Part shown: positions 1-21,481 of the stretch, one piece after another
How the letters are laid out: each line of letters starts with the position of its first letter
How positions within the stretch are numbered: position 1 is the stretch's first letter
Origin: a virus
Taxonomy: Duplodnaviria > Caudoviricetes
Virus record (IMG/VR): IMGVR_UViG_3300031454_000246
Span: 1 to 24,886 of that record
DNA length: 24,886 nucleotides
Direction: 5' to 3' (one strand)
Made by a program: the position numbers and the translations under genes
The notes under the pieces: model-generated
Database searches by the model: none
What the model was told of the DNA's origin: nothing
What the model saw: only the letters and a program-made list of their open reading frames with translations

Positions 1-210
1 CTACACGGCGTGGGGTGACTGGGGGAGTGTTTCGACAGCGTGTACCGGGGACGCATCCGGTCCCGCCACGAGCACGTTGAGGGTCTTGCAACGCGGTCGT
101 TCGCACAGCACCTCGATCGTGCCCACGGTGACGGCGTGGCGCAGCAGCAGACGCTTGCAGCGCCGACAGCGCCACTCGCGCAACCCCGGTGTCGGCAAGC
201 TATCGTCCAT
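1..210 (-). CDS. Com-like zinc-ribbon protein (69 aa)
   Basis: REWRCRRCKRLL...IEVLCERPRCKTLN matches the two-knuckle pattern of Mu Com-family Zn ribbons; the start overlaps the tape measure stop. Confidence 0.75.
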   Translation of the reverse strand: MDDSLPTPGLREWRCRRCKRLLLRHAVTVGTIEVLCERPRCKTLNVLVAGPDASPVHAVETLPQSPHAV

Positions 211-3200
211 AGCCGCGCAACCTCGCCTCGCGGCGCTCCTCGCGCTTGAACCCCTCGACCGTGACGGTCGGCTCGGTGGACTGGATCGTGTAGTGATTCT
301 CGTGGTGGATGTGCGTCTCGCCGCCGCGTCCCCCGAGCGCCGCCATCTGATCCGCGTTGAAGACGCCCTCCGGCCCGGACTCGCCGAACGTGTAGCCGCG
401 CCCGGAGCGCACGCCGCGCCCGACGATCGGCTCGGTGATCACCCCGCCGTCGGCCATCCCGACGAAATCGACGTAATCGCGCGGGTTGACCGCGACGCCC
501 TGATCGCGGATCTCGAAGTGGACGTGGTCGCCGGTGCTGTCGCCGGTGCTGCCCTGGATGCCGAGCGGATCGCCGCGCGACAGGAGATCGCGCACGGAGG
601 TCGAGATGCTGGCGAGGTGGCCGTAGATCGACTCGATCCCGCCGCCGTGATCGATCGTCACCGCGTTGCCGTAGCCGCCCGCCGCCTTCGCCGACGCGAC
701 CGTGCCGAGCGCCCCCGCCATGACCGTCGACCTGGGCGGGCCGACCAGATCGATCCCGCTGTGCGCGCCGCTCTTGTAGTGCTGCTCCGAGAAATCGTTC
801 CGCCCGAACTCCTGGGAGACGCTGTACCGTGACAGCGGCGGCGACCAGCCATCCCACACCGGCCCGCGACCACCGGGGCTGTTGGGCGCGCTCGGGGCGG
901 GTGCGGGCGCGGAGACCGGCGCGGCGGTGCCGACCACCACGGCATCGGGGTTGTAGCGACCGCCCAGGGATTCGACCACCTGTTGCATGTGGCTCAGGTA
1001 ATCGGCCACGGTGTATTGGGGGTGGGTCGGGTCGATCCCGGCGTTGTAGTCGCCGGTCAGCCACATGGCGATGACCTCGCGCAGCGTGTGATCGCGATAG
1101 AGGCCGGTCGTCAGGTTGTCGAGCGCGGCGTTGATGCCCGATTCGCGCGAGTCGAAGATCGCGAAGTCGCGCGCCATCCCCTGCGTCGTGCCGGTCTGCC
1201 CCGTCCAATTGTTTCCCGTCAAGCCGGTGAAGTTGTTGTAGCGGGTCAGCCCGTCGTTCGGCGAGCCGTAGGCGCTCTCGTGTTCCAGGATGCCCATGAA
1301 GACGCTGGTGGGGACGCCGTGCGCGTGCGCCGCCGACACGATGGTGGACCCCATGCCGGAGAGCGCCCGCCCGCCGGGGATGCGCGCATCGACCAGTCCG
1401 GGCGACGGATCGCCCCAGCCCGCCCCCGGCGTGCCACGCCCGCCCGGCGCGACTTTCGGCGTGGCGGCCTTGAGCATCTTGTCGATCGACCCCAGCGCCC
1501 AGTCCTTGACCTTCCCGGCCAGTTTGCCGCCGATGTCGCCCAGGGCACCCGGCAGGCTGAGGTCGCCCAGCCCGACCGCGCCTTTCGCCTGATCGTAGAG
1601 CCAGCCCGCGCCCTTTTGCAGCACGCCGACGATCCCGCCGAGCGCGTCCAGCCCGCCCGCGAAACCGGGGAGTTTGGCCGGGCCGGACTGCGGGGGCGCG
1701 ACCGCCCCGGATCGCACCAGCCCCATGCTCTCCGCGTGCGTCATGACCTGCGCGCCCCTGGGCAGGTAGGCGAGTTCCGCGCCCGCGCCGCCCGGCCCCT
1801 CGCCGACCCACGCCATGCCACCGCCCCAGTTCTTCGTGCCGGTGGCGAGGCCGGCGGGGTCGATGGTCGCGCCGGGGATGGCACCTTCGATCTTGGGAGC
1901 GCTCAGTTTATCCGCCACCCAGTTCACCAACAGGCGCACGCCTTCGGCGAACGACCGCACCTTCTCTAACACCGTATTGAGCGCGCCGACCGCGTTCTTG
2001 CCGAAGCCGCCCATTATCCCGCCGATGGCGTCTTTTGCCGCCACGAAGCCGCTCAGGACGGCGTTCTTGACCGTGTCGGAGGCGTCGGTGAAAACCTTGG
2101 GCACGGTGGTGCCGATGAAGCTCGTGACCGAGCGCACGGTATCGGCGAACCACGTTCCCAACGTTCCGTTGCCCGCAGCGTCGAGGAAGCTGGACCAGAT
2201 GCCCATAAACGCCGCCCGGACGGCCTCATACTTCTCGGTGAATTTGCCGGGGATATGGGTGGCGATGAACGTATCCACCGCCGAGACGGCCTGGGTGAAC
2301 CAGTCGAAGAGCACCCCGCCGCTGCCGGGTGTGAGTATCTTGGTGAAGATGCCCATGAAGGCGTCCTTCACCGTGTCTATCGCCCCGGTGAACGTGCCGG
2401 GCAGTGTCACGGAGATGAAGGTTTTCGCCGTGCCGATGATGCCGGAGTCGCCATACCCGATCCAGGCGTCGAACGCCGCCAGTACACTCCCCGCGCCCGC
2501 GAAGATGCCCATGAACTTCTCGCGTACGGCCTGCTGCCCCGCGAAGAATTTCGCGGGGAGGGTGTCGGAGATGAAGGTCCAGGCGTCGGCGATGCGCGCG
2601 GTGAGCCACGACCCCAACGCTTCCTTGACCGACCCCGCACCCTCGAAGATCGTCATGAAGCCGGATTTGACGGCGCTCAACCCGGCGCTGAATTTCGCGG
2701 GGACATCGGTCGCGATGAACTGCCACACATCCGCGATCCGGTCGCGCTCCCACTGGCCGAACGCCGCGAGGACGCTCCCCGCACCCTCGAAGATGCCCAT
2801 GACGGCAGCGACCACCGTCTGTCGGGCGTCGCTGAATTTGCCCGGTATGGTGACGGTGATGAACGTTTTCGCCGCCGCCCCGAGTTCGGAGAACGCCCCA
2901 CCGACCGCCGACGTGATGCGGTCCCAAGTATCGGTGACATTCTTGCTGACCGCTGCCCACCCGTCAGACCACCACTTCTGGATCTCAGCAAGCTTGCCCT
3001 GAATACCTGTGCCGATCTCCGAGAACTTCCCGCCCACATCGTTTTTCATCTGCGTCAGCTTGTCGCGCACGGCGGTGCCCATGTCGGAGAATTGTTGCCC
3101 GGTGTCCACCAGGTATCGCGCTATGCGATCGTGGATGATGGTCCCCATCTCGGAGAATTGCTGCCCGGTATCATTCTTGTACTGCGTCAGCCGATCCCGG

Positions 3201-5716
3201 ATAACGGTTCCCATCTCGGAAAACTTGCCGCCGATCGTCGTGCCGATCTCGGTCAATTTATTCTGGACCGCGATTCCCATTTCAGAGAACTGCTGCCCGG
3301 TATCATTCTTATATTGCGTCACCCGGTCGCGGATCGTCGTGCCGATCTCGGAGAATTTGCCGCCAATCCAGACATGCAGCGCGACGCCCCAACCGTTGAC
3401 CGTGGCGCTGATGCCGTCGAGCGCCTTGCCGATCAGCGGGCCTGCGGTACGAACGAGGCCCACGATGCCATCCCAGGCGATCCGGGCGGCATTCTGGATG
3501 TACGCCCATGCGCCGTCCCAGTCGCCGCTGATCAGCGCCAGCAGGCCGCGCACGAGGTTGCCGATGACGCCGAGATAGGTGTTGATCGTGTTCTGGATCA
3601 GCGCCCATGCCCGGCCCAGCACCGCCACTATCTGATCGCCGTGCGCGACGAGGAACCCCGCGACCGCGCCGAAGATCGCCTGGGCCTGGGTCCAGAGCCA
3701 GGTCGCCGCCGCGATCACCTTGGTGGAGACGGACTCCCAGGCGGCGCTCAGTTGGGGTAGGATGTCCGTCCAGAACGCCGAGAGGCGCGCGCCGAGAGCG
3801 GCCAGGACCGGCTGTAACCAGGCCCACACCGCCGCGACCTTGCCCTGGATGTCGCCCCAGTTATTCGCCCAGGCTACGCCCAGCAGGGTGATGATCGCGA
3901 CTATGGCGGCGATGGCGAGCGTGACCGGCCCGCCGAGCAGCGCCACGATCACCCCGAAAGCGGCGCTGCCCCCCGTGACGACAGCGGATAACGCGCCCCA
4001 GACGGCGATCGCGGTCGTCACCCAGCCGACCACGGTGGCGATGATCGAGAAGGCGGCGAACGCCGCCGCCCCGATCGCCACCACCTTGGCGATCGTCCCC
4101 ATGTGGTCGCGGATGAAGCCCGCGACCTGTTGCACGGCGGGCAGGACCTGGTTAAAGAACACGTCCTTGGCGGTCAGCGCGAAATCGCGCAGGCGCAGGG
4201 CGAAGTCCCCGACCGCGCGCACGGCGGGCTGCACGGTGTCATCCCCGACCCACTTCCCGGTGAGGGCTTGCTGCACGGTCAGGAAACCGTCGCGGACGAG
4301 CTGGAAGTTCCGCAACAGATCGGAGATGAATAGGGCGGCCTTGGCGCTCGTCCCCGGCCCGAATACCGCGTCGAGCGCGGCGAGCAGCGGCCCGAACGCG
4401 GCGTTGAAGTCGCCGGTCTGGAAGGCGGTCAGCAGCCCGCCCGCCGCATCCTTGACGGGGCCGAGCATGGCGACGGCGTCGCGCCCGAAGCCGAGGAGCG
4501 CCTTGCCACCCTCCGTCACCTTCGCCGCGAGGACGGGTCCGTAGGTTTCGAGCAAGGGGATCGCGGCATTGACGGCCCGTGTCCCCCAGTCGATCAGCTT
4601 GCGCCCATACGGGAGGAACACCCGCCCGATCGTGATCCCGGCGGTTTCGAGCGAGCCTTTGAGTTGCTCGATCGACCCGGCGGTGTTGTTCAGCCGTTCC
4701 AACCCGACCGACTCCGCCGTGACGAGGCCCATCTTCGCGGCCATCTCGGCGAACCCCGCGCCGCCCGATTTGGCGAAGACCGTCGCTGCACGCACGGCAT
4801 CCGACCCGAAGATCGTCTCCAACGCCATCTGTCGCTGGGCGTCGGTCAGCCCGGCGGTCGAGTTCTGCAACAGATCGGCGATCTGCGCCATCGATTTGAA
4901 CGAACCATTGGCATTGATGAATTGATTGGTGCCATCCTCGGTGATCAGCCCGAGTTCGCGCATCGCCTTGGTTTGCGCCTTCGTCGTGGGCTGGAGGTTC
5001 GAGAGCATGGTTTTGAGGCTCGTCCCGGCGTCGCTGCCGACCAGCCCCTTGGCACCCATCACGGCGATCGCCTGGGCCACGTCATCGAATGACTGCCCGG
5101 CCCCGTCGGCCACCGCCCCGACCTGGTTGAGCGCGAACTTGAAATCCGTCACGGAGAGCGACGAGGCATTCGCCGCGCCCGCGATCAGGTCGCTGACGTG
5201 GGCCATGTCGGAGCCTTTGAGCGAGAAGACATTCATCGCGGTCGCGGCGATCGCGGCGGCGTCGGGGAGGCTCACCCCGCCCGCTGCGGCGAGGTTCAGG
5301 ACGGCTTGGGCCGCGCCGTCCATGATTTGCGGCACGGTTAGCCCGCCCTTAACAAGTTCCTCGATCCCCGCCGCCGCCTGGGATGCGCTGAATGACGTGT
5401 CCTTCCCCAGCTTCAGCGCGAGGGAGGACAACTGGTCCATTTCCTCGCCGGTCGCGTTGGAGACGGCCTTGACGCCGCTCATGGTCTTCTCGAATGTGGA
5501 GGCCGCCCCGATGCTGCCGGAGAACGCGCCGCCGACGAGTTCGATCCCCTTCTGGACGACCGCGAAGCCGACGCCGAGCAGCGCCCCCTTCAGGACCGTG
5601 CCGAAGCCGCCCGCCGATTTTTCGAGCGTGCCGAGTCGCCGCTCCACCTGATCGGTGGTGCGGAGGAAATTCTCGGCGGACGCTTGGTAGCGAAAACTTA
5701 TCACCGTACTTGTCAT
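200..5716 (-). CDS. Tail tape measure protein (TP901-like N-terminal core) with C-terminal glucosaminidase/lysozyme-like and M23 peptidase domains
   Basis: 1838 aa and Ala/Gly-rich; N-terminal TSFSASQAA...AGTSLKTML core; hydrophobic segments; periodic Trp/Phe repeats; ILEHESAYG...NNFTGL; M23 motifs HSGID, YGHL and HVHFE; lies downstream of the tail chaperones. Confidence 0.95.
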   Translation of the reverse strand: MTSTVISFRYQASAENFLRTTDQVERRLGTLEKSAGGFGTVLKGALLGVGFAVVQKGIELVGGAFSGSIGAASTFEKTMSGVKAVSNATGEEMDQLSSLALKLGKDTSFSASQAAAGIEELVKGGLTVPQIMDGAAQAVLNLAAAGGVSLPDAAAIAATAMNVFSLKGSDMAHVSDLIAGAANASSLSVTDFKFALNQVGAVADGAGQSFDDVAQAIAVMGAKGLVGSDAGTSLKTMLSNLQPTTKAQTKAMRELGLITEDGTNQFINANGSFKSMAQIADLLQNSTAGLTDAQRQMALETIFGSDAVRAATVFAKSGGAGFAEMAAKMGLVTAESVGLERLNNTAGSIEQLKGSLETAGITIGRVFLPYGRKLIDWGTRAVNAAIPLLETYGPVLAAKVTEGGKALLGFGRDAVAMLGPVKDAAGGLLTAFQTGDFNAAFGPLLAALDAVFGPGTSAKAALFISDLLRNFQLVRDGFLTVQQALTGKWVGDDTVQPAVRAVGDFALRLRDFALTAKDVFFNQVLPAVQQVAGFIRDHMGTIAKVVAIGAAAFAAFSIIATVVGWVTTAIAVWGALSAVVTGGSAAFGVIVALLGGPVTLAIAAIVAIITLLGVAWANNWGDIQGKVAAVWAWLQPVLAALGARLSAFWTDILPQLSAAWESVSTKVIAAATWLWTQAQAIFGAVAGFLVAHGDQIVAVLGRAWALIQNTINTYLGVIGNLVRGLLALISGDWDGAWAYIQNAARIAWDGIVGLVRTAGPLIGKALDGISATVNGWGVALHVWIGGKFSEIGTTIRDRVTQYKNDTGQQFSEMGIAVQNKLTEIGTTIGGKFSEMGTVIRDRLTQYKNDTGQQFSEMGTIIHDRIARYLVDTGQQFSDMGTAVRDKLTQMKNDVGGKFSEIGTGIQGKLAEIQKWWSDGWAAVSKNVTDTWDRITSAVGGAFSELGAAAKTFITVTIPGKFSDARQTVVAAVMGIFEGAGSVLAAFGQWERDRIADVWQFIATDVPAKFSAGLSAVKSGFMTIFEGAGSVKEALGSWLTARIADAWTFISDTLPAKFFAGQQAVREKFMGIFAGAGSVLAAFDAWIGYGDSGIIGTAKTFISVTLPGTFTGAIDTVKDAFMGIFTKILTPGSGGVLFDWFTQAVSAVDTFIATHIPGKFTEKYEAVRAAFMGIWSSFLDAAGNGTLGTWFADTVRSVTSFIGTTVPKVFTDASDTVKNAVLSGFVAAKDAIGGIMGGFGKNAVGALNTVLEKVRSFAEGVRLLVNWVADKLSAPKIEGAIPGATIDPAGLATGTKNWGGGMAWVGEGPGGAGAELAYLPRGAQVMTHAESMGLVRSGAVAPPQSGPAKLPGFAGGLDALGGIVGVLQKGAGWLYDQAKGAVGLGDLSLPGALGDIGGKLAGKVKDWALGSIDKMLKAATPKVAPGGRGTPGAGWGDPSPGLVDARIPGGRALSGMGSTIVSAAHAHGVPTSVFMGILEHESAYGSPNDGLTRYNNFTGLTGNNWTGQTGTTQGMARDFAIFDSRESGINAALDNLTTGLYRDHTLREVIAMWLTGDYNAGIDPTHPQYTVADYLSHMQQVVESLGGRYNPDAVVVGTAAPVSAPAPAPSAPNSPGGRGPVWDGWSPPLSRYSVSQEFGRNDFSEQHYKSGAHSGIDLVGPPRSTVMAGALGTVASAKAAGGYGNAVTIDHGGGIESIYGHLASISTSVRDLLSRGDPLGIQGSTGDSTGDHVHFEIRDQGVAVNPRDYVDFVGMADGGVITEPIVGRGVRSGRGYTFGESGPEGVFNADQMAALGGRGGETHIHHENHYTIQSTEPTVTVEGFKREERREARLRGYGR
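2090..2870 (-). repeat. About 48-aa tandem protein repeats in the tape measure (about 6 copies)
   Basis: Recurring (T/Q)FIxxx(I/V/L)P(G/A)KF...FMxIFxGAGSV; the first two units are 48 aa apart; boundaries approximate. Confidence 0.8.
3005..3365 (-). repeat. 22-aa (11-mer based) repeats in the tape measure
   Basis: GGKFSE(I/M)G and TQYKNDTGQQFSEMG recur; DNA repeats such as gtgccgatctc and tgctgcccggtatcattct. Confidence 0.85.
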
Positions 5717-5740
5717 TTTAGCCTGTCCCCATGCGGAAAG

Positions 5741-5750
5741 TGGTATACTT
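5741..5750 (+). promoter_or_regulatory. Extended -10 promoter (TGnTATACT) for the HNH cassette
   Basis: TGGTATACTT; the same 10-mer precedes tnpB at 7446-7455. Confidence 0.65.
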
Positions 5751-5755
5751 AGATC

Positions 5756-5850
5756 GGGATAGGCACGGAGTAATTACCCGTGCCGAACGGCGGGCGACCC
5801 TGACCCGCCTTCCCACACCACTCAGGGATACACAGCAGGGAGTGTGGTTT
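5756..5850 (+). ncRNA. Structured 5' leader RNA (three-way junction plus pseudoknot) upstream of the HNH gene
   Basis: GGGA 5756-59/TCCC 5811-14; GGCACGG 5762-68/CCGTGCC 5778-84; GGCGGG 5789-94/CCCGCC 5804-09; loop CCCTGA 5798-5803 complementary to TCAGGG 5822-27. Confidence 0.6.
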
Positions 5851-5852
5851 TC

Positions 5853-6533
5853 ATGGACGGACAACGGGCAGAAACCAAGACGTGCAAGAGATGCCACGCG
5901 CAAAAGAGCGTGGGTGATTACTTCTCCTTTGTCGATAAGAGCAACGGACGGCGATACTATTTCTCGCGCTGCAAGCCGTGTCAGATCATCTGGCAACGAG
6001 AACGTCGACAAGCGGAGCGTATCGTTCGTCGCGCGGTGGCCCAATATGGCGCTGGGCAGCAAGTGGCGATAGCGTGCGCGGGTTGTGCTACTCGCTTCTT
6101 CGTAGCCTTTGGGCACGATCAGCGGAAGTATTGCAGCAACGCGTGCTACTATCGCCGCAAGATAGGGCATATCGCTATGTCCTGTGTCGTTTGCGGCACG
6201 CAGTTTACCGTGCAGCCTTCTCACCACCACTTGCGCACCTGCTCGCCGGAATGCGCGAGCACCAATCGCTCGGAGGGTCAGCGAAAGAATCCCACCACCC
6301 CCCGGACGCGCTGCAAGTACCAGGCGTGGCGGAAGGTTCGACAGCAAGTCATCGACCGCGACGGCAACGCTTGCGTGACCTGTGGTACGAGTAAGCAGTT
6401 GTCGGTCCACCACATCACCCCCTGGCGTGTCAGTCACGATGACTCGCTGACGAACCTTGTCACGCTCTGTCGCTCCTGCCACATGAAGCTGGAATGGCGC
6501 GACTACCGGGGACGTATCTGTACCGACTCATGA
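5853..6533 (+). CDS. HNH endonuclease with three N-terminal Cys4 Zn-finger modules (free-standing homing endonuclease-like)
   Basis: CKRC..CKPC, CAGC..YCSNAC and CVVC..TCSPEC, then RDGNACVTCG...VHHI...NLVTLCRSCH; GGGAG SD upstream of the ATG at 5853; opposite strand to the tail operon. Confidence 0.9.
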   Translation: MDGQRAETKTCKRCHAQKSVGDYFSFVDKSNGRRYYFSRCKPCQIIWQRERRQAERIVRRAVAQYGAGQQVAIACAGCATRFFVAFGHDQRKYCSNACYYRRKIGHIAMSCVVCGTQFTVQPSHHHLRTCSPECASTNRSEGQRKNPTTPRTRCKYQAWRKVRQQVIDRDGNACVTCGTSKQLSVHHITPWRVSHDDSLTNLVTLCRSCHMKLEWRDYRGRICTDS

Positions 6534-6555
6534 TCGTCGCCACCGGGCCTCGATC

Positions 6556-6933
6556 CTAGTTGCGCGAGGCGATCAGCGCGTCGCGCGTCTGTCCCATGCG
6601 CGCCATCAGTCGGGCGGCGTTGTCGGCTTGCTCCTCCGCCGTCGGCTCGTCAGCGATCTCGCCGTCCCACATGGCGTCGAAGTCGAGCAGGAAATCGTTC
6701 GTCGTGAACGGCTGCGGGCGCTGTTTCGGGTCGCGGTTCACGTTGGCGATCACGGACGCGATGTGCGCCGCTTGGAGGTCGCCGCGCGCCTCCCCGAACG
6801 GCTCGCGCGCCGCGAACACCTGCCAGGCGACGAATTCCCGCGCGCTCATCCGCGCGCCGAGTTCATCCACGGTCATGCCCAGAACGAGCGCTAGTCGGTG
6901 GAGGAATCGCCGTTCTGGGCGTCGCCGAAATCC
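6556..6933 (-). CDS. Tail assembly chaperone T segment (translated as a G-T fusion by -1 frameshift)
   Basis: RRFLHRLALVLGMTVDEL..RMSAREF..W..F...EPFG..R.D resembles lambda gpT/DUF4035-type segments; lies in the -1 frame relative to G and overlaps its 3' end. Confidence 0.8.
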   Translation of the reverse strand, partial: GFRRRPERRFLHRLALVLGMTVDELGARMSAREFVAWQVFAAREPFGEARGDLQAAHIASVIANVNRDPKQRPQPFTTNDFLLDFDAMWDGEIADEPTAEEQADNAARLMARMGQTRDALIASRN

Positions 6934-7460: not shown

Positions 7461-8636
7461 ATGGACAGGACGTTGCGCGTGTGCCTCCAACCCACCCCCG
7501 AACAGGCCACCTTGCTGGCGGAGACGACGCGCCAATTCACGGCGGTCTTCAACGCGGTCTGCGCCCACGGCTACGCGGCGGGCGAGCAGAACGGCGTCCG
7601 GTTGCACCACGCGACCTACTATCCGCAGAAGGCGATATGGCCCGCGCTGGTGAGCGACCACCACATCCAGGCGCGCGTCAAGGCCACCGAGGCGGTCAAG
7701 TCGGCGCTGGCGCTGGCGAAAAAGGGGCGCAAGGTTTCGGCCCCGCGCTCCCGGTCCTGCCCGCCGCGCTATAACGTCCACACGTTCAAGGTCGATTGGG
7801 CGCGCGGCGTGGTCCGCTTGTCCACCACGGGCGGCAAGCAGGATGTCTGGTTCACCGTCCCGGCCTACGCCGCACCCTATGTCGGTGGGAAGGTCTGCAC
7901 CGCCGACCTGATCCACCGCGACGGCAAGTGGTATCTGCACATCGTGGTAGACCTGCCCGCGCCGGAAGTCGCGCCGACTGCGGAGGTGGTCGGCGTTGAT
8001 CTGGGCCTCGCCCAACCCGCCGTGACGAGTCAGGCCCGCTTCCTGGGGAAGAAGGCGTGGCGCAACACCGAGGCGCGGTACTTCAAGCAGCGCCGCGCCC
8101 TGCAAGCCAGGGGCAGCAAGAGTGCGCGACGGCACCTGCGACGCGTCAAGGGGAAGCAACTCCGCTTCCGGCGCGACTGCGATCACGTCCTGAGCAAGCG
8201 CATCGTGCAGAGCGTCGGACCCGGCGCAACGATTGTCGTGGAGAATCTGACCAACATTCGCGCCCGCATCAAGCCGCGCCAGGGGAAGCAGGCGCGGCGC
8301 ATCCACGGCTGGTCCTTCGCCCAGTTGCGCGGATTTATCGAGTACAAGGCAGAGTCGCGGGGTTGTACGGTGGCCGGGGTTGACCCCAGGCACACCTCCC
8401 AGGCATGTAGCCGGTGTGGGCACATTGCCCGCAACAACCGCCGCTCCCGGTCGCTGTTCTGTTGTCGGCAGTGCGGCTACACCGCTCATGCTGACCACAA
8501 CGCCTCCGTCAATATCGCTGCCAAGTACCGTGCTAGCATCGGCTGGCCTCTTGCTAGCGGGCGGTCTGTCAACCCGCCTATCGTCTCGGATTCCGGCACC
8601 TCGCCGGAAGTGCCAGGGACAAGCTCCCGGCTTTAG
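7461..8636 (+). CDS. tnpB: RNA-guided endonuclease TnpB (391 aa)
   Basis: N-terminal L.PTPEQ; RuvC motifs GVDLG, VVENL and HADHNA; Zn finger TSQACSRCG...FCCRQCG. Confidence 0.95.
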   Translation: MDRTLRVCLQPTPEQATLLAETTRQFTAVFNAVCAHGYAAGEQNGVRLHHATYYPQKAIWPALVSDHHIQARVKATEAVKSALALAKKGRKVSAPRSRSCPPRYNVHTFKVDWARGVVRLSTTGGKQDVWFTVPAYAAPYVGGKVCTADLIHRDGKWYLHIVVDLPAPEVAPTAEVVGVDLGLAQPAVTSQARFLGKKAWRNTEARYFKQRRALQARGSKSARRHLRRVKGKQLRFRRDCDHVLSKRIVQSVGPGATIVVENLTNIRARIKPRQGKQARRIHGWSFAQLRGFIEYKAESRGCTVAGVDPRHTSQACSRCGHIARNNRRSRSLFCCRQCGYTAHADHNASVNIAAKYRASIGWPLASGRSVNPPIVSDSGTSPEVPGTSSRL

Positions 8637-8671
8637 CCGGGGGTAGTTGACGCGGGCCGTCGCCACGCCCC
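8500..8671 (+). ncRNA. TnpB omegaRNA/reRNA scaffold plus flank-derived guide (starting 8652)
   Basis: Overlaps the 3' end of tnpB; hairpins GCTAGCA/TGCTAGC, TTCCGGC/GCCGGAA and the right-end hairpin; GTCAAC 8568-73 complementary to terminal GTTGAC 8646-51; 5' end approximate. Confidence 0.7.
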
Positions 8672-17079: not shown

Positions 17080-18624
17080 TCAGGCCCCCTGTCCTAACTG
17101 CGCCCGCAGCGCCGCCGCCGGATCGACCGCCCCGGGTGGTGTGCCACCGACCGCGCCCGCCAGCGCACCATCCGCGCGTTGCTGATCGGTGCGCGCCTGC
17201 GCGACCTCCTGATCCACGTCGCCGACCGGCTCGCCGATCGCCGCGTTGCCGATCGCCAGCGTGGCGCGGTCGGAGAGCAAGCCCTCGTCGCGCAGGAACT
17301 GCACCCAGTCCCGCGTCAGCTGCCCCTCGCGGTCGGTGATGTCCGGCCAGGTGACGATCGTCGGCGCGTCGCCGACGATCTGCGAATCGCTCAGGCGGCG
17401 CTTGCGGAGCCAGATATCGGCCAGCTCGTGGAATCCGCCCGTCGCGACACTCCCCAGCAGCGGATCGGCGGGCGTGCCCTCGAACTGCCCCTGCTTCCCC
17501 TCGATGAATTTGAGGAACGGGGGCATCTGCTCGGAGACGCTGGCGTTGCTGCTGGCGACCGCCGTGCCCCAGATGAACTCGGGGATGCTCGAATGCTGCG
17601 CCAGCACCCAGAAGAGGATATTGAGGAGCGTCTGCGTGTCGGCCGCGAACGCCGCCGGGGAGGCCAGGCGGAACGACGCGCCCTCGCCGAGCACCTGCAC
17701 CTACTCCGGTGCCCAGTCCACGACCTTGCGGATCTGCCCGGTCGTCGGGTCCTCGACATCGCGCCCGAAGAGCGCCACAAACTGCTTCACATCCTTGATC
17801 CCCTCGAAGACCGGGGTGGGGCGGCCCATCAGCTTGTTCCCGGTGATCGCCCAGTTCAGCAGATCGTCGTAGCGGCGCAGCAAGGTCATCAGCGCGTAGA
17901 CCTCGGGCAGGCCGTAGACGTCGCCCGGCCCGCGTTCATTGGCCCAGTGGACCACGTCAATCCGCCCGATCGGGTTCGGCTCGTCGCTGATCAGCTGCCA
18001 GGCGGAGGGGATGTCGCGCGTCTTGGCGGAGCGCCGCTCCACGATACGCTGGGTGGCGGTGCGGGTGTCGCGGTAGAACCACTCGACCGCGACGCCGTTG
18101 GCGGCGCGCTCGACACGCCGCGCGTGGATCCGCACGGCCGCCGTGCCCCGCCCGTAGGGATCGAGTACCACCTCGACATCGGTCGGGGGGATGTGGACGA
18201 GCGCACCATCGTCATCGATGGCGATGTAGTGATCCCCGAGCTTCAGGCACTCGATCGCCCCCTGTAGGAAGTCGCGCTGATGGGCGGCCGTCCAGCGCGC
18301 GAGGAGCTGATTGGTATAGCTCGGCTCCTCGGTGACCGTGCCGTCCTCGGCCGTGGTGCGCGTGGGGGGCTCATCGATCCGGATCGCGACGCCGCGCCCG
18401 AGCGTGAAGTTGGCGATGTGCCGGACGATGCTCTTGACGAAGAGCCCGCCCATCTCGTAGCGGGGGAGGCGGCCGTGATAGAGGCGCTCATATGCCTCGT
18501 AGGGCAGGCGGCCGTAATCCGCCGCGACCGGCTGGATTGCGCTGGCGCGGCCCACCCCGTAGATCGTCTGCGACTCCGGTTTACCGCCAAGCATTTCGGC
18601 GACCTGCTGCTGTTCCGCGCTCAC
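17080..18624 (-). pseudogene. Portal protein interrupted by an in-frame TAG at 17701-17703
   Basis: Two abutting same-frame ORFs (307 + 206 aa) read ...DWAPE*VQVLGEG...; portal-like motifs GDHYI, VVHWANE....YG.PE and IPEFIWG; follows terL. Confidence 0.75.
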
Positions 18625-20989: not shown

Positions 20990-21481
20990 TCAGCGGTCCT
21001 GATGCTGTGCGCGCATGACGCGCCCACGATACCCGCTACGTCGATGGATCGGCTCGGCGATCGGCTTGGTCGGCCCGCGCAATGACACCAACGCCACCAT
21101 CCGCTGTCGCAAAACCCGCAACAGGTCGCGGCGCATCTCCTCGCGATCATGACATGAGCGACAGAGGGTCAGGAGGTTCCCACGCTCGTTGGTACCGCCA
21201 GCGGTCAGCGCGAGCACATGGTGGATCGTCAAGCGCTCCCACGTGCCGCAACATTGGCAGCGATAGCCGTCGCGCTCGAAAATGGCGGTACGCTCCGCGC
21301 GCCGGAACCGCTTGCGGCTATGCTGGCCCCGCCCGCTACCGTGTCCGGGATTGCCCGCGCGTTCGTTACTCAGCCACTTTGTCATCGCCCTCATCGCGTG
21401 GTCCAGTCCGCCCGTATCTTGCGCCAGGAGGTCACGCGCCGCCCGCATATGGGCGGTCCACCCCGGCTGCTTCTTGCCCAT
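20990..21481 (-). CDS. HNH endonuclease
   Basis: IFERDGYRCQCCG...LTIHHV....GGTN...NLLTLCRSCH. Confidence 0.9.
   Translation of the reverse strand: MGKKQPGWTAHMRAARDLLAQDTGGLDHAMRAMTKWLSNERAGNPGHGSGRGQHSRKRFRRAERTAIFERDGYRCQCCGTWERLTIHHVLALTAGGTNERGNLLTLCRSCHDREEMRRDLLRVLRQRMVALVSLRGPTKPIAEPIHRRSGYRGRVMRAQHQDR

Follow-up and report, generated by a model that had tools for sequence, protein, structure and literature searches.

A divergent int-alpA leader with a self-complementary loop ahead of an antisense HNH nuclease cassette in a phage tail operon

The int-alpA motif (RF02996), which we take to come from the 224-motif survey, is a catalogued RNA family without an assigned function and is classed in Rfam as an sRNA. 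It is not named in the main text of PMC5737381, the supplement of which may already describe some of the features given below, and in the available part of PMC12370729 it is listed in a table only. Free-standing homing endonucleases form the second described group: they are inserted between conserved genes, as is the cassette analysed here, and hairpins that sequester the ribosome-binding site (RBS) restrict those of phage T4 to late times (PMC2988022, in the part available). Structured RNAs that dimerize through short loops form the third, and in a retrovirus a GACG kiss of only 2 bp gives a stable homodimer (PMC7357161, in the part available).

The stretch analysed (24 886 nt; IMG/VR record IMGVR_UViG_3300031454_000246), called the window below, is a phage contig with its head and tail genes on the minus strand; two runs that cover most of the region carry the label rock metagenome. 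Between the genes for tail chaperone T and the tape measure lies a cassette, antisense to both, which consists of an extended −10 element, a 97 nt leader and a zinc-finger HNH gene. Its features are as follows.

5714–5716, minus strand: start of the tape-measure gene (PF10145)
5717–6555, plus strand: inserted cassette of 839 nt, between the T stop codon and the tape-measure start
5741–5749, plus strand: extended −10 promoter candidate, TG-G-TATACT, 6 nt upstream of P1 and with no good −35
5756–5814, plus strand: three-way junction of int-alpA type, from the fold, the Rfam match, the family model and covariation
5756–5759/5811–5814, plus strand: stem P1, of only 4 bp, followed by UA
5762–5768/5778–5784, plus strand: stem P2, of 7 bp, closing loop L2
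5769–5777, plus strand: loop L2, with an 8 nt palindrome (5770–5777, centre 5773/5774); predicted leader–leader kissing site
5785–5788, plus strand: GAAC junction between P2 and P3
5789–5794/5804–5809, plus strand: stem P3, closing loop L3
5795–5803, plus strand: loop L3, in which CCCUGA (5798–5803) may form 6 bp with S1 or 5 bp with S2
5822–5827, plus strand: S1, TCAGGG, the first site complementary to L3 (CCCTGA, 5798–5803); putative decoy
5829–5846, plus strand: hairpin P4 (5829–5833/5842–5846), the loop of which holds S2
5836–5840, plus strand: S2, CAGGG, overlapping the Shine–Dalgarno (SD)-like AGGGAG at 5837–5842
5853–6533, plus strand: free-standing HNH endonuclease gene of 226 amino acids, start codon ATG at 5853, with three Cys4 fingers followed by a C-terminal HNH domain
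6556–6558, minus strand: stop codon of the gene for tail chaperone T (PF06223)

All of the leader and gene features that had been named in an earlier sequence-only reading of this DNA were found in place when checked against the sequence; hairpin P4, site S2 and the palindrome in L2 had escaped it.

Empty junctions were sought using T as the query, which gave 12 loci. In the three that are closest by T (89, 67 and 67% identity) T runs straight into the tape measure; the distance from the T stop codon to the tape-measure start is 7 nt in L681 and L682 versus 839 nt in the window, and L683 likewise has a short junction and lacks the cassette. Contigs in each of four runs (X1–X4) join across the insertion place (for example, 5707 to 6568), and in one contig the cassette, at about 91% identity, sits on a tape measure whose sequence departs from that of the window from position 5672 on. 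The cassette is an insertion, as shown by the empty junctions in relatives and by this second tape-measure allele, and the mobile antisense HNH cassette of the earlier reading is thus borne out. The two cassettes differ by two changes within the promoter and leader (136 nt) and by at least 32 in the next 349 coding nucleotides (p = 0.0014 for the comparison). One of the leader changes turns a G–C into a G–U pair at the base of P2 and the other affects one loop base outside S2. The extended −10 is identical in both.

At the insertion edge, the 3′ end of T (6556–6570, minus strand) is unlike that of the empty alleles, with a serine and an arginine recoded and one residue added. Tape-measure alleles have been swapped among the close relatives just past the first 20 or so codons (200–5716, minus strand, compared with L681, L682 and L683): L681 matches the window only at 5641–5707, and L683 over most of the tested region. 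The C-terminal domains of the window tape measure are a glucosaminidase and an M23 peptidase. A second antisense gene, for TnpB/IS605 OrfB (PF07282, PF01385; 7401–8650, plus strand), lies between the tail-tube and chaperone genes and is absent from L681; its right end overlaps a weak HEARO match (19.9 bits, 8527–8651). The probable portal gene (17080–18624, minus strand) consists of two consecutive open reading frames (ORFs), 17701–18624 and 17080–17700, that are parted by one stop codon; the stop may be read through, the gene may be split, or the assembly may be wrong here.

The 226-residue ORF matches PF01844 (E = 2.3e-9) and phrog_1271 (E = 1.3e-24). Its eight Cys pairs make up three fingers and the HNH pair, and the HNH motif is intact (HHITP at residue 186) and joined to the finger region, which is predicted to bind DNA. 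The Pfam scan of the ORF gave HNH families only, with no RuvC or RRXRR family, and the Rfam scan gave no match to HEARO (RF02033) at 5741–5852, in agreement with the earlier description of the product as a triple-zinc-finger HNH protein distinct from IscB/HEARO. Among its relatives one protein has 92% identity, and the other 64 matches share mainly the finger and HNH parts; no relatives were found among viral contigs, and annotated phages gave only partial matches of less than 60% identity. The cassette gene is likely to encode a free-standing homing endonuclease that is optional between conserved genes. Another HNH gene in the window (163 amino acids, 20990–21481, minus strand) lies slightly upstream of the probable terminase genes and has no int-alpA leader.

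The earlier reading could not place the leader in a named RNA family. The Rfam scan matched it to int-alpA with a score of 26.1 bits (E = 0.13), which is below the gathering threshold of 35.8 bits. The alignment covers the whole model (positions 1–71) against 5752–5827 and the junction elements UA-G, C-GAA, GCGGG/CCCGC and C-U are present in model order; the score is lowered by the short P1 and the long P2. L326, the P2 of which is nearly the same length as that of the window copy, scores 36.2 bits and is over the threshold. Eighteen of 20 chosen homologs submitted to Rfam pass the int-alpA threshold, and a model built from 49 hand-picked homologs without the window copy scores the window leader at 35.4 bits, with a rough E of 4e-10. 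Because these homologs pass and because this model finds the leader, we assign it, from sequence and predicted fold, to int-alpA as a divergent member in which P1 is short and P2 long. It is thus no new RNA family, and the novelty that had been suggested for it falls with the match to a catalogued one. Its position between T and the tape measure is unlike the integrase/alpA place in the family name. No other copy of the RNA scored above 9.1 bits in the window or in L681–L683 (42 kb), and no ribozyme or xrRNA family in Rfam matched the leader (ribozymes at E up to 5).

Two motif readings of the leader were considered and rejected. A hammerhead-like core (CUGA) was discarded since the CUGA sits in the freely varying L3. 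GGA is the motif of CsrA-type sites, and such sites were discarded since S1 and S2 depart from GGA in many members.

Homologous leaders were collected by pattern scans that, except for the first, left L3 free, and at least 693 sequences were obtained, the window included; pattern matches overall came to about 530 viral, 480 genome and 1000 metagenome stretches, chance matches included. Among the matches listed, 170 distinct junctions passed filters on P1–P3 only, and a set at less than 80% identity comprised 126 members (68 viral, 37 metagenome, 20 genome and the window copy). The members share descent, and p-values therefore overstate their independence. In 49 homologs P1–P3 were paired at 92.6%, compared with 64.9% in shuffles and 39–51% in slid registers, and there were 207 double-sided changes. 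The covariation in homologs that the earlier reading had made decisive is therefore present, in P1–P3 as in the L3 pairings described below. Junction bases are invariant or near-invariant in the family, an invariance that is partly built in, as the search patterns fixed parts of the junction and of P3. In the window copy the fold of the junction (5754–5816) has a z-score of −4.05, compared with only −1.94 for the whole leader (5752–5856). A −10-like hexamer lies 2–13 nt upstream of P1 in 29 of 125 members, versus 8–14 in other 12 nt windows; the extended −10 at 5741–5749 is not listed by a consensus promoter scan, which requires a −35 as well.

The genes downstream were scanned for 54 of the 68 viral members, and 18 of these 54 were of nuclease type: several HNH families including phrog_1271, GIY-YIG/NUMOD3, endonuclease VII and T5orf172. 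The remainder included Rha, replication initiators, ParB-Dam, methylases, tail proteins and genes of no family. Upstream (68 genes scanned of 86 found) there were 15 integrases and several capsid or tail genes. Because the same RNA precedes unrelated nucleases, regulators and tail genes, the int-alpA RNA is, as far as gene neighbourhoods indicate, a portable leader and not the cofactor of one protein; the idea of a dedicated RNA partner of the HNH protein, also raised in the sequence-only reading, fails on the same observation. In L003 and L146 the leader is intact and the first ORF past it has 26 amino acids and looks, by eye, as though the two ends of an AP2/HNH nuclease gene had been joined; these are possibly internally deleted cassettes. 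The viral scan also returned a separate conserved, repeat-like element at nine loci (L021, L025, L073, L079, L084, L104, L107, L117 and L126), which has a GCGGG/CCCGC hairpin and a loop that does not vary but is without S1 and S2.

Loop L3 has two sites to pair with. L3:S1 pairing of at least 5 bp was found in 100 of the 126 members, by 71 different helices, against 8.5% in the swapped-pair control; the 6 bp loop–tail pseudoknot pairing proposed earlier is thus complementary here and maintained in the family. For L3:S2 the figures are 80 of 126 and 12.7%, and in an earlier set of 102 from which the commonest loops were removed, S2 pairing persisted in 31 of 57, versus 13.5%. S1 gave the longer pairing in 69 of the 126 members, an equal one in 46 and a shorter one in 11; the 26 members without a 5 bp S1 include some false matches. 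Where both sites are present the same part of L3 is used by both (90 of 92 members), so that S1 and S2 exclude each other on one loop. Predicted duplex energies in the window copy are −10.4 kcal/mol for L3:S1 and −9.1 kcal/mol for L3:S2.

S2 is the site that touches the start of translation. A match of at least 5 nt to the SD consensus was found in S2 and the next 5 nt in 54 of 92 members and in S1 in 12 of 92; an ATG follows S2 by 4–17 nt in 77 of 92. P4 reaches at least 5 bp in 70 of 92 members compared with 28.5 in spacer shuffles, and the distance from the junction to S1 is narrow (13–18 nt in 82 of 92). The covers of the SD that had been put forward earlier, CACTC with GAGTG and CCACAC with GTGTGG, do exist in the window copy (−3.2 and −5.5 kcal/mol), but in the family they occur at the chance level (46 of 92 versus 44.6 swapped); the conserved covers of the SD are P4 and L3:S2 instead. 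The covarying L3, S1 and S2, together with P4 over the SD, point to a switch in cis on translation, one of the roles that the earlier reading had offered. That the leader exerts translational control of some kind is very probable.

The second loop carries a signal of another type. A palindrome of at least 4 nt in the interior of P2 was found in 45 of 65 distinct elements, compared with 27.3 ± 3.7 after shuffling (2000 shuffles, none of which reached 45), with 14 different core sequences; the same kind of test showed no excess in L3 or in the linker. In the other 20 elements a kiss would be of 2 bp. In 21 of the 23 distinct elements of the 11 nt class, positions 6 and 7 form a self-complementary dinucleotide, with GC in 13 and AT in 7 (table 13, 0, 1, 7; Fisher p = 7e-5), and some elements are identical except at this dinucleotide. 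The window copy has AT within its 8 nt palindrome, where L326, with a similar long arm, carries GC. Some of the 12 nt P2 elements have GACG loops. A partner in cis was sought by Watson–Crick pairing at fixed offsets from eight anchors, and none was found: the best position follows the GC/AT state in 10%. Adjacent bases cannot pair together and no position in cis tracks them, so the simplest reading of the signal would be pairing between two copies of the RNA. The alternative of a DNA site for a dimeric protein was judged unlikely given the 14 different cores. P2 length is not correlated with linker length (rho 0.01), which leaves one simple dimer geometry unsupported. The self-complementary L2 is the new element that this analysis adds to the known anatomy of int-alpA, and in the literature searched we found no bacterial mRNA that gates its own translation by leader–leader pairing.

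A mechanism that would join these parts is as follows. The HNH gene would be transcribed from the extended −10. With L3 on S1, the decoy, the loop that holds the SD would be open and translation on; with L3 on S2, the loop pairing and P4 would jointly cover the SD and initiation would be blocked. Two leaders would pair through their palindromic L2 loops and so shift the balance of L3 between S1 and S2. Such a dimer-thrown translational switch, in either direction, is a serious possibility that we put at somewhat under an even chance. The direction slightly preferred is that a lone leader is off, with L3 on S2 in cis, and that paired leaders are on, with L3 on the S1 of the partner, since pairing at S1 is the stronger in most cases and a dimer wins only by gaining stronger pairing; synthesis of the nuclease would then be limited to times when its message is plentiful, such as lytic genome replication. 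This direction requires L3:S1 to be strained in cis. The narrow distance from the junction to S1 fits a pseudoknot in cis equally well, which would reverse the direction and make the dimer a brake. Against a dimer switch stand the weak 2 bp kisses in a third of the P2 elements and the kinship of the members. Most riboswitch homodimers have been seen in crystals and are thought not to act in vivo (PMC7357161, in the part available), and dimer formation at cellular mRNA levels would need much energy.

Several simpler readings compete with the dimer switch. A purely cis translational switch, in which the junction would be the binding site for a small molecule or for a protein of host or phage and the L2 palindromes would have another cause, is rather unlikely. 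Riboswitches are commonly built with a loop that pairs over the SD, a design that this reading would match, and near-invariant junction bases with two mutually exclusive sites, one of them on the SD, speak for it; part of that invariance came from the search patterns, however, the downstream genes share neither a metabolic theme nor a common protein, and the covariation of adjacent bases in L2 is left unexplained. We consider it improbable that the leader is a static damper, in which L3 partitions between S1 and S2 and, together with P4, sets a low fixed translation without any sensing. The gap of about 1.3 kcal/mol between the two pairings in the window copy would allow this and a low steady output would suit a toxic nuclease, but one hairpin suffices in T4 (PMC2988022, in the part available), and neither the conserved junction nor L2 is accounted for.

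Two further readings give the RNA a role beyond the control of its own message. The two sites per loop and the L2 palindrome would both be accounted for if a short, junction-only form without S1 bound in trans to full-length messages, where it would dock by L2 and cover S2. Phage RNAs such as c4 and IsrK act in trans as antisense-type systems, the 71 different L3 helices resemble specificity groups and Rfam types int-alpA as an sRNA. Such a form is nevertheless quite improbable: a run of four U after P1, as for a terminator there, occurs in only 12 of 93 members and is missing from the window copy, and a terminator after P1 was rejected on this count. Least probable of all is a fold that protects the 5′ end against exonucleases, as in viral xrRNAs, or that serves as the cofactor or guide of the HNH protein. 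The topology of viral xrRNAs resembles a junction with a loop-to-tail pseudoknot, which lies here near the predicted transcript start, and three other members also precede a phrog_1271 gene. The protective 5′ role, which the sequence-only reading had offered, and the cofactor role both leave S2, P4 and L2 unexplained; genes for HNH, GIY-YIG and endonuclease VII nucleases follow the leader, as do non-nuclease genes, and the Rfam scan gave no xrRNA or ribozyme match to it and a HEARO match only elsewhere in the window.

Taken by itself, the locus is a mobile nuclease cassette of an ordinary type; the wider import lies with the large int-alpA family and its unassigned function, which the L2 signal makes directly testable. 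Extending the dimer switch to the family, we suggest only tentatively that int-alpA leaders are self-counting switches, in which the concentration of a message would set how far its own gene is translated, without the help of a protein, a ligand or a separate sRNA. If so, phages, satellites and homing endonucleases would have a means to gauge genome copy number, and the variable L3 would be the address that separates copies. If the L2 covariation does reflect leader–leader gating of the SD, a bacterial mRNA would control its own translation by its own concentration, and a protein-free threshold or feedback element of 100 nt, the address loops of which can be exchanged, would be of use as a synthetic part.

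Among the described systems, IscB/HEARO (OMEGA) likewise sets an HNH protein beside a structured RNA, but the window protein is without RuvC or RRXRR and its RNA is not tied to one protein family. The retroviral GACG and guanidine-II ACGR kissing loops share with L2 short self-complementary loops, down to two base pairs, but act in genome dimerization or within one riboswitch, and no leader–leader switch on bacterial translation is described among the kissing loops in the available part of PMC7357161. With int-alpA (RF02996) the leader has in common the UA-G, C-GAA and C-U junctions, the GCGGG/CCCGC P3, a pyrimidine-rich L3 and a purine-rich tail; the window copy differs in its 4 bp P1, its 23 nt P2, GAACG in place of GAAAA and a score below the cutoff, and it sits in an HNH cassette in a tail operon, whereas the Rfam model stops at S1, without P4 and S2. 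The T4 I-TevI, I-TevII, I-TevIII and segB and the Aeh1 mobE hairpins also place the RBS of a homing endonuclease within RNA structure and also belong to free-standing insertions between conserved genes, but they are single hairpins relieved by a late promoter (PMC2988022, in the part available). The window cassette instead combines a junction with two alternative sites and a palindromic loop; it lies on the strand opposite to the flanking genes and has a promoter candidate of its own.
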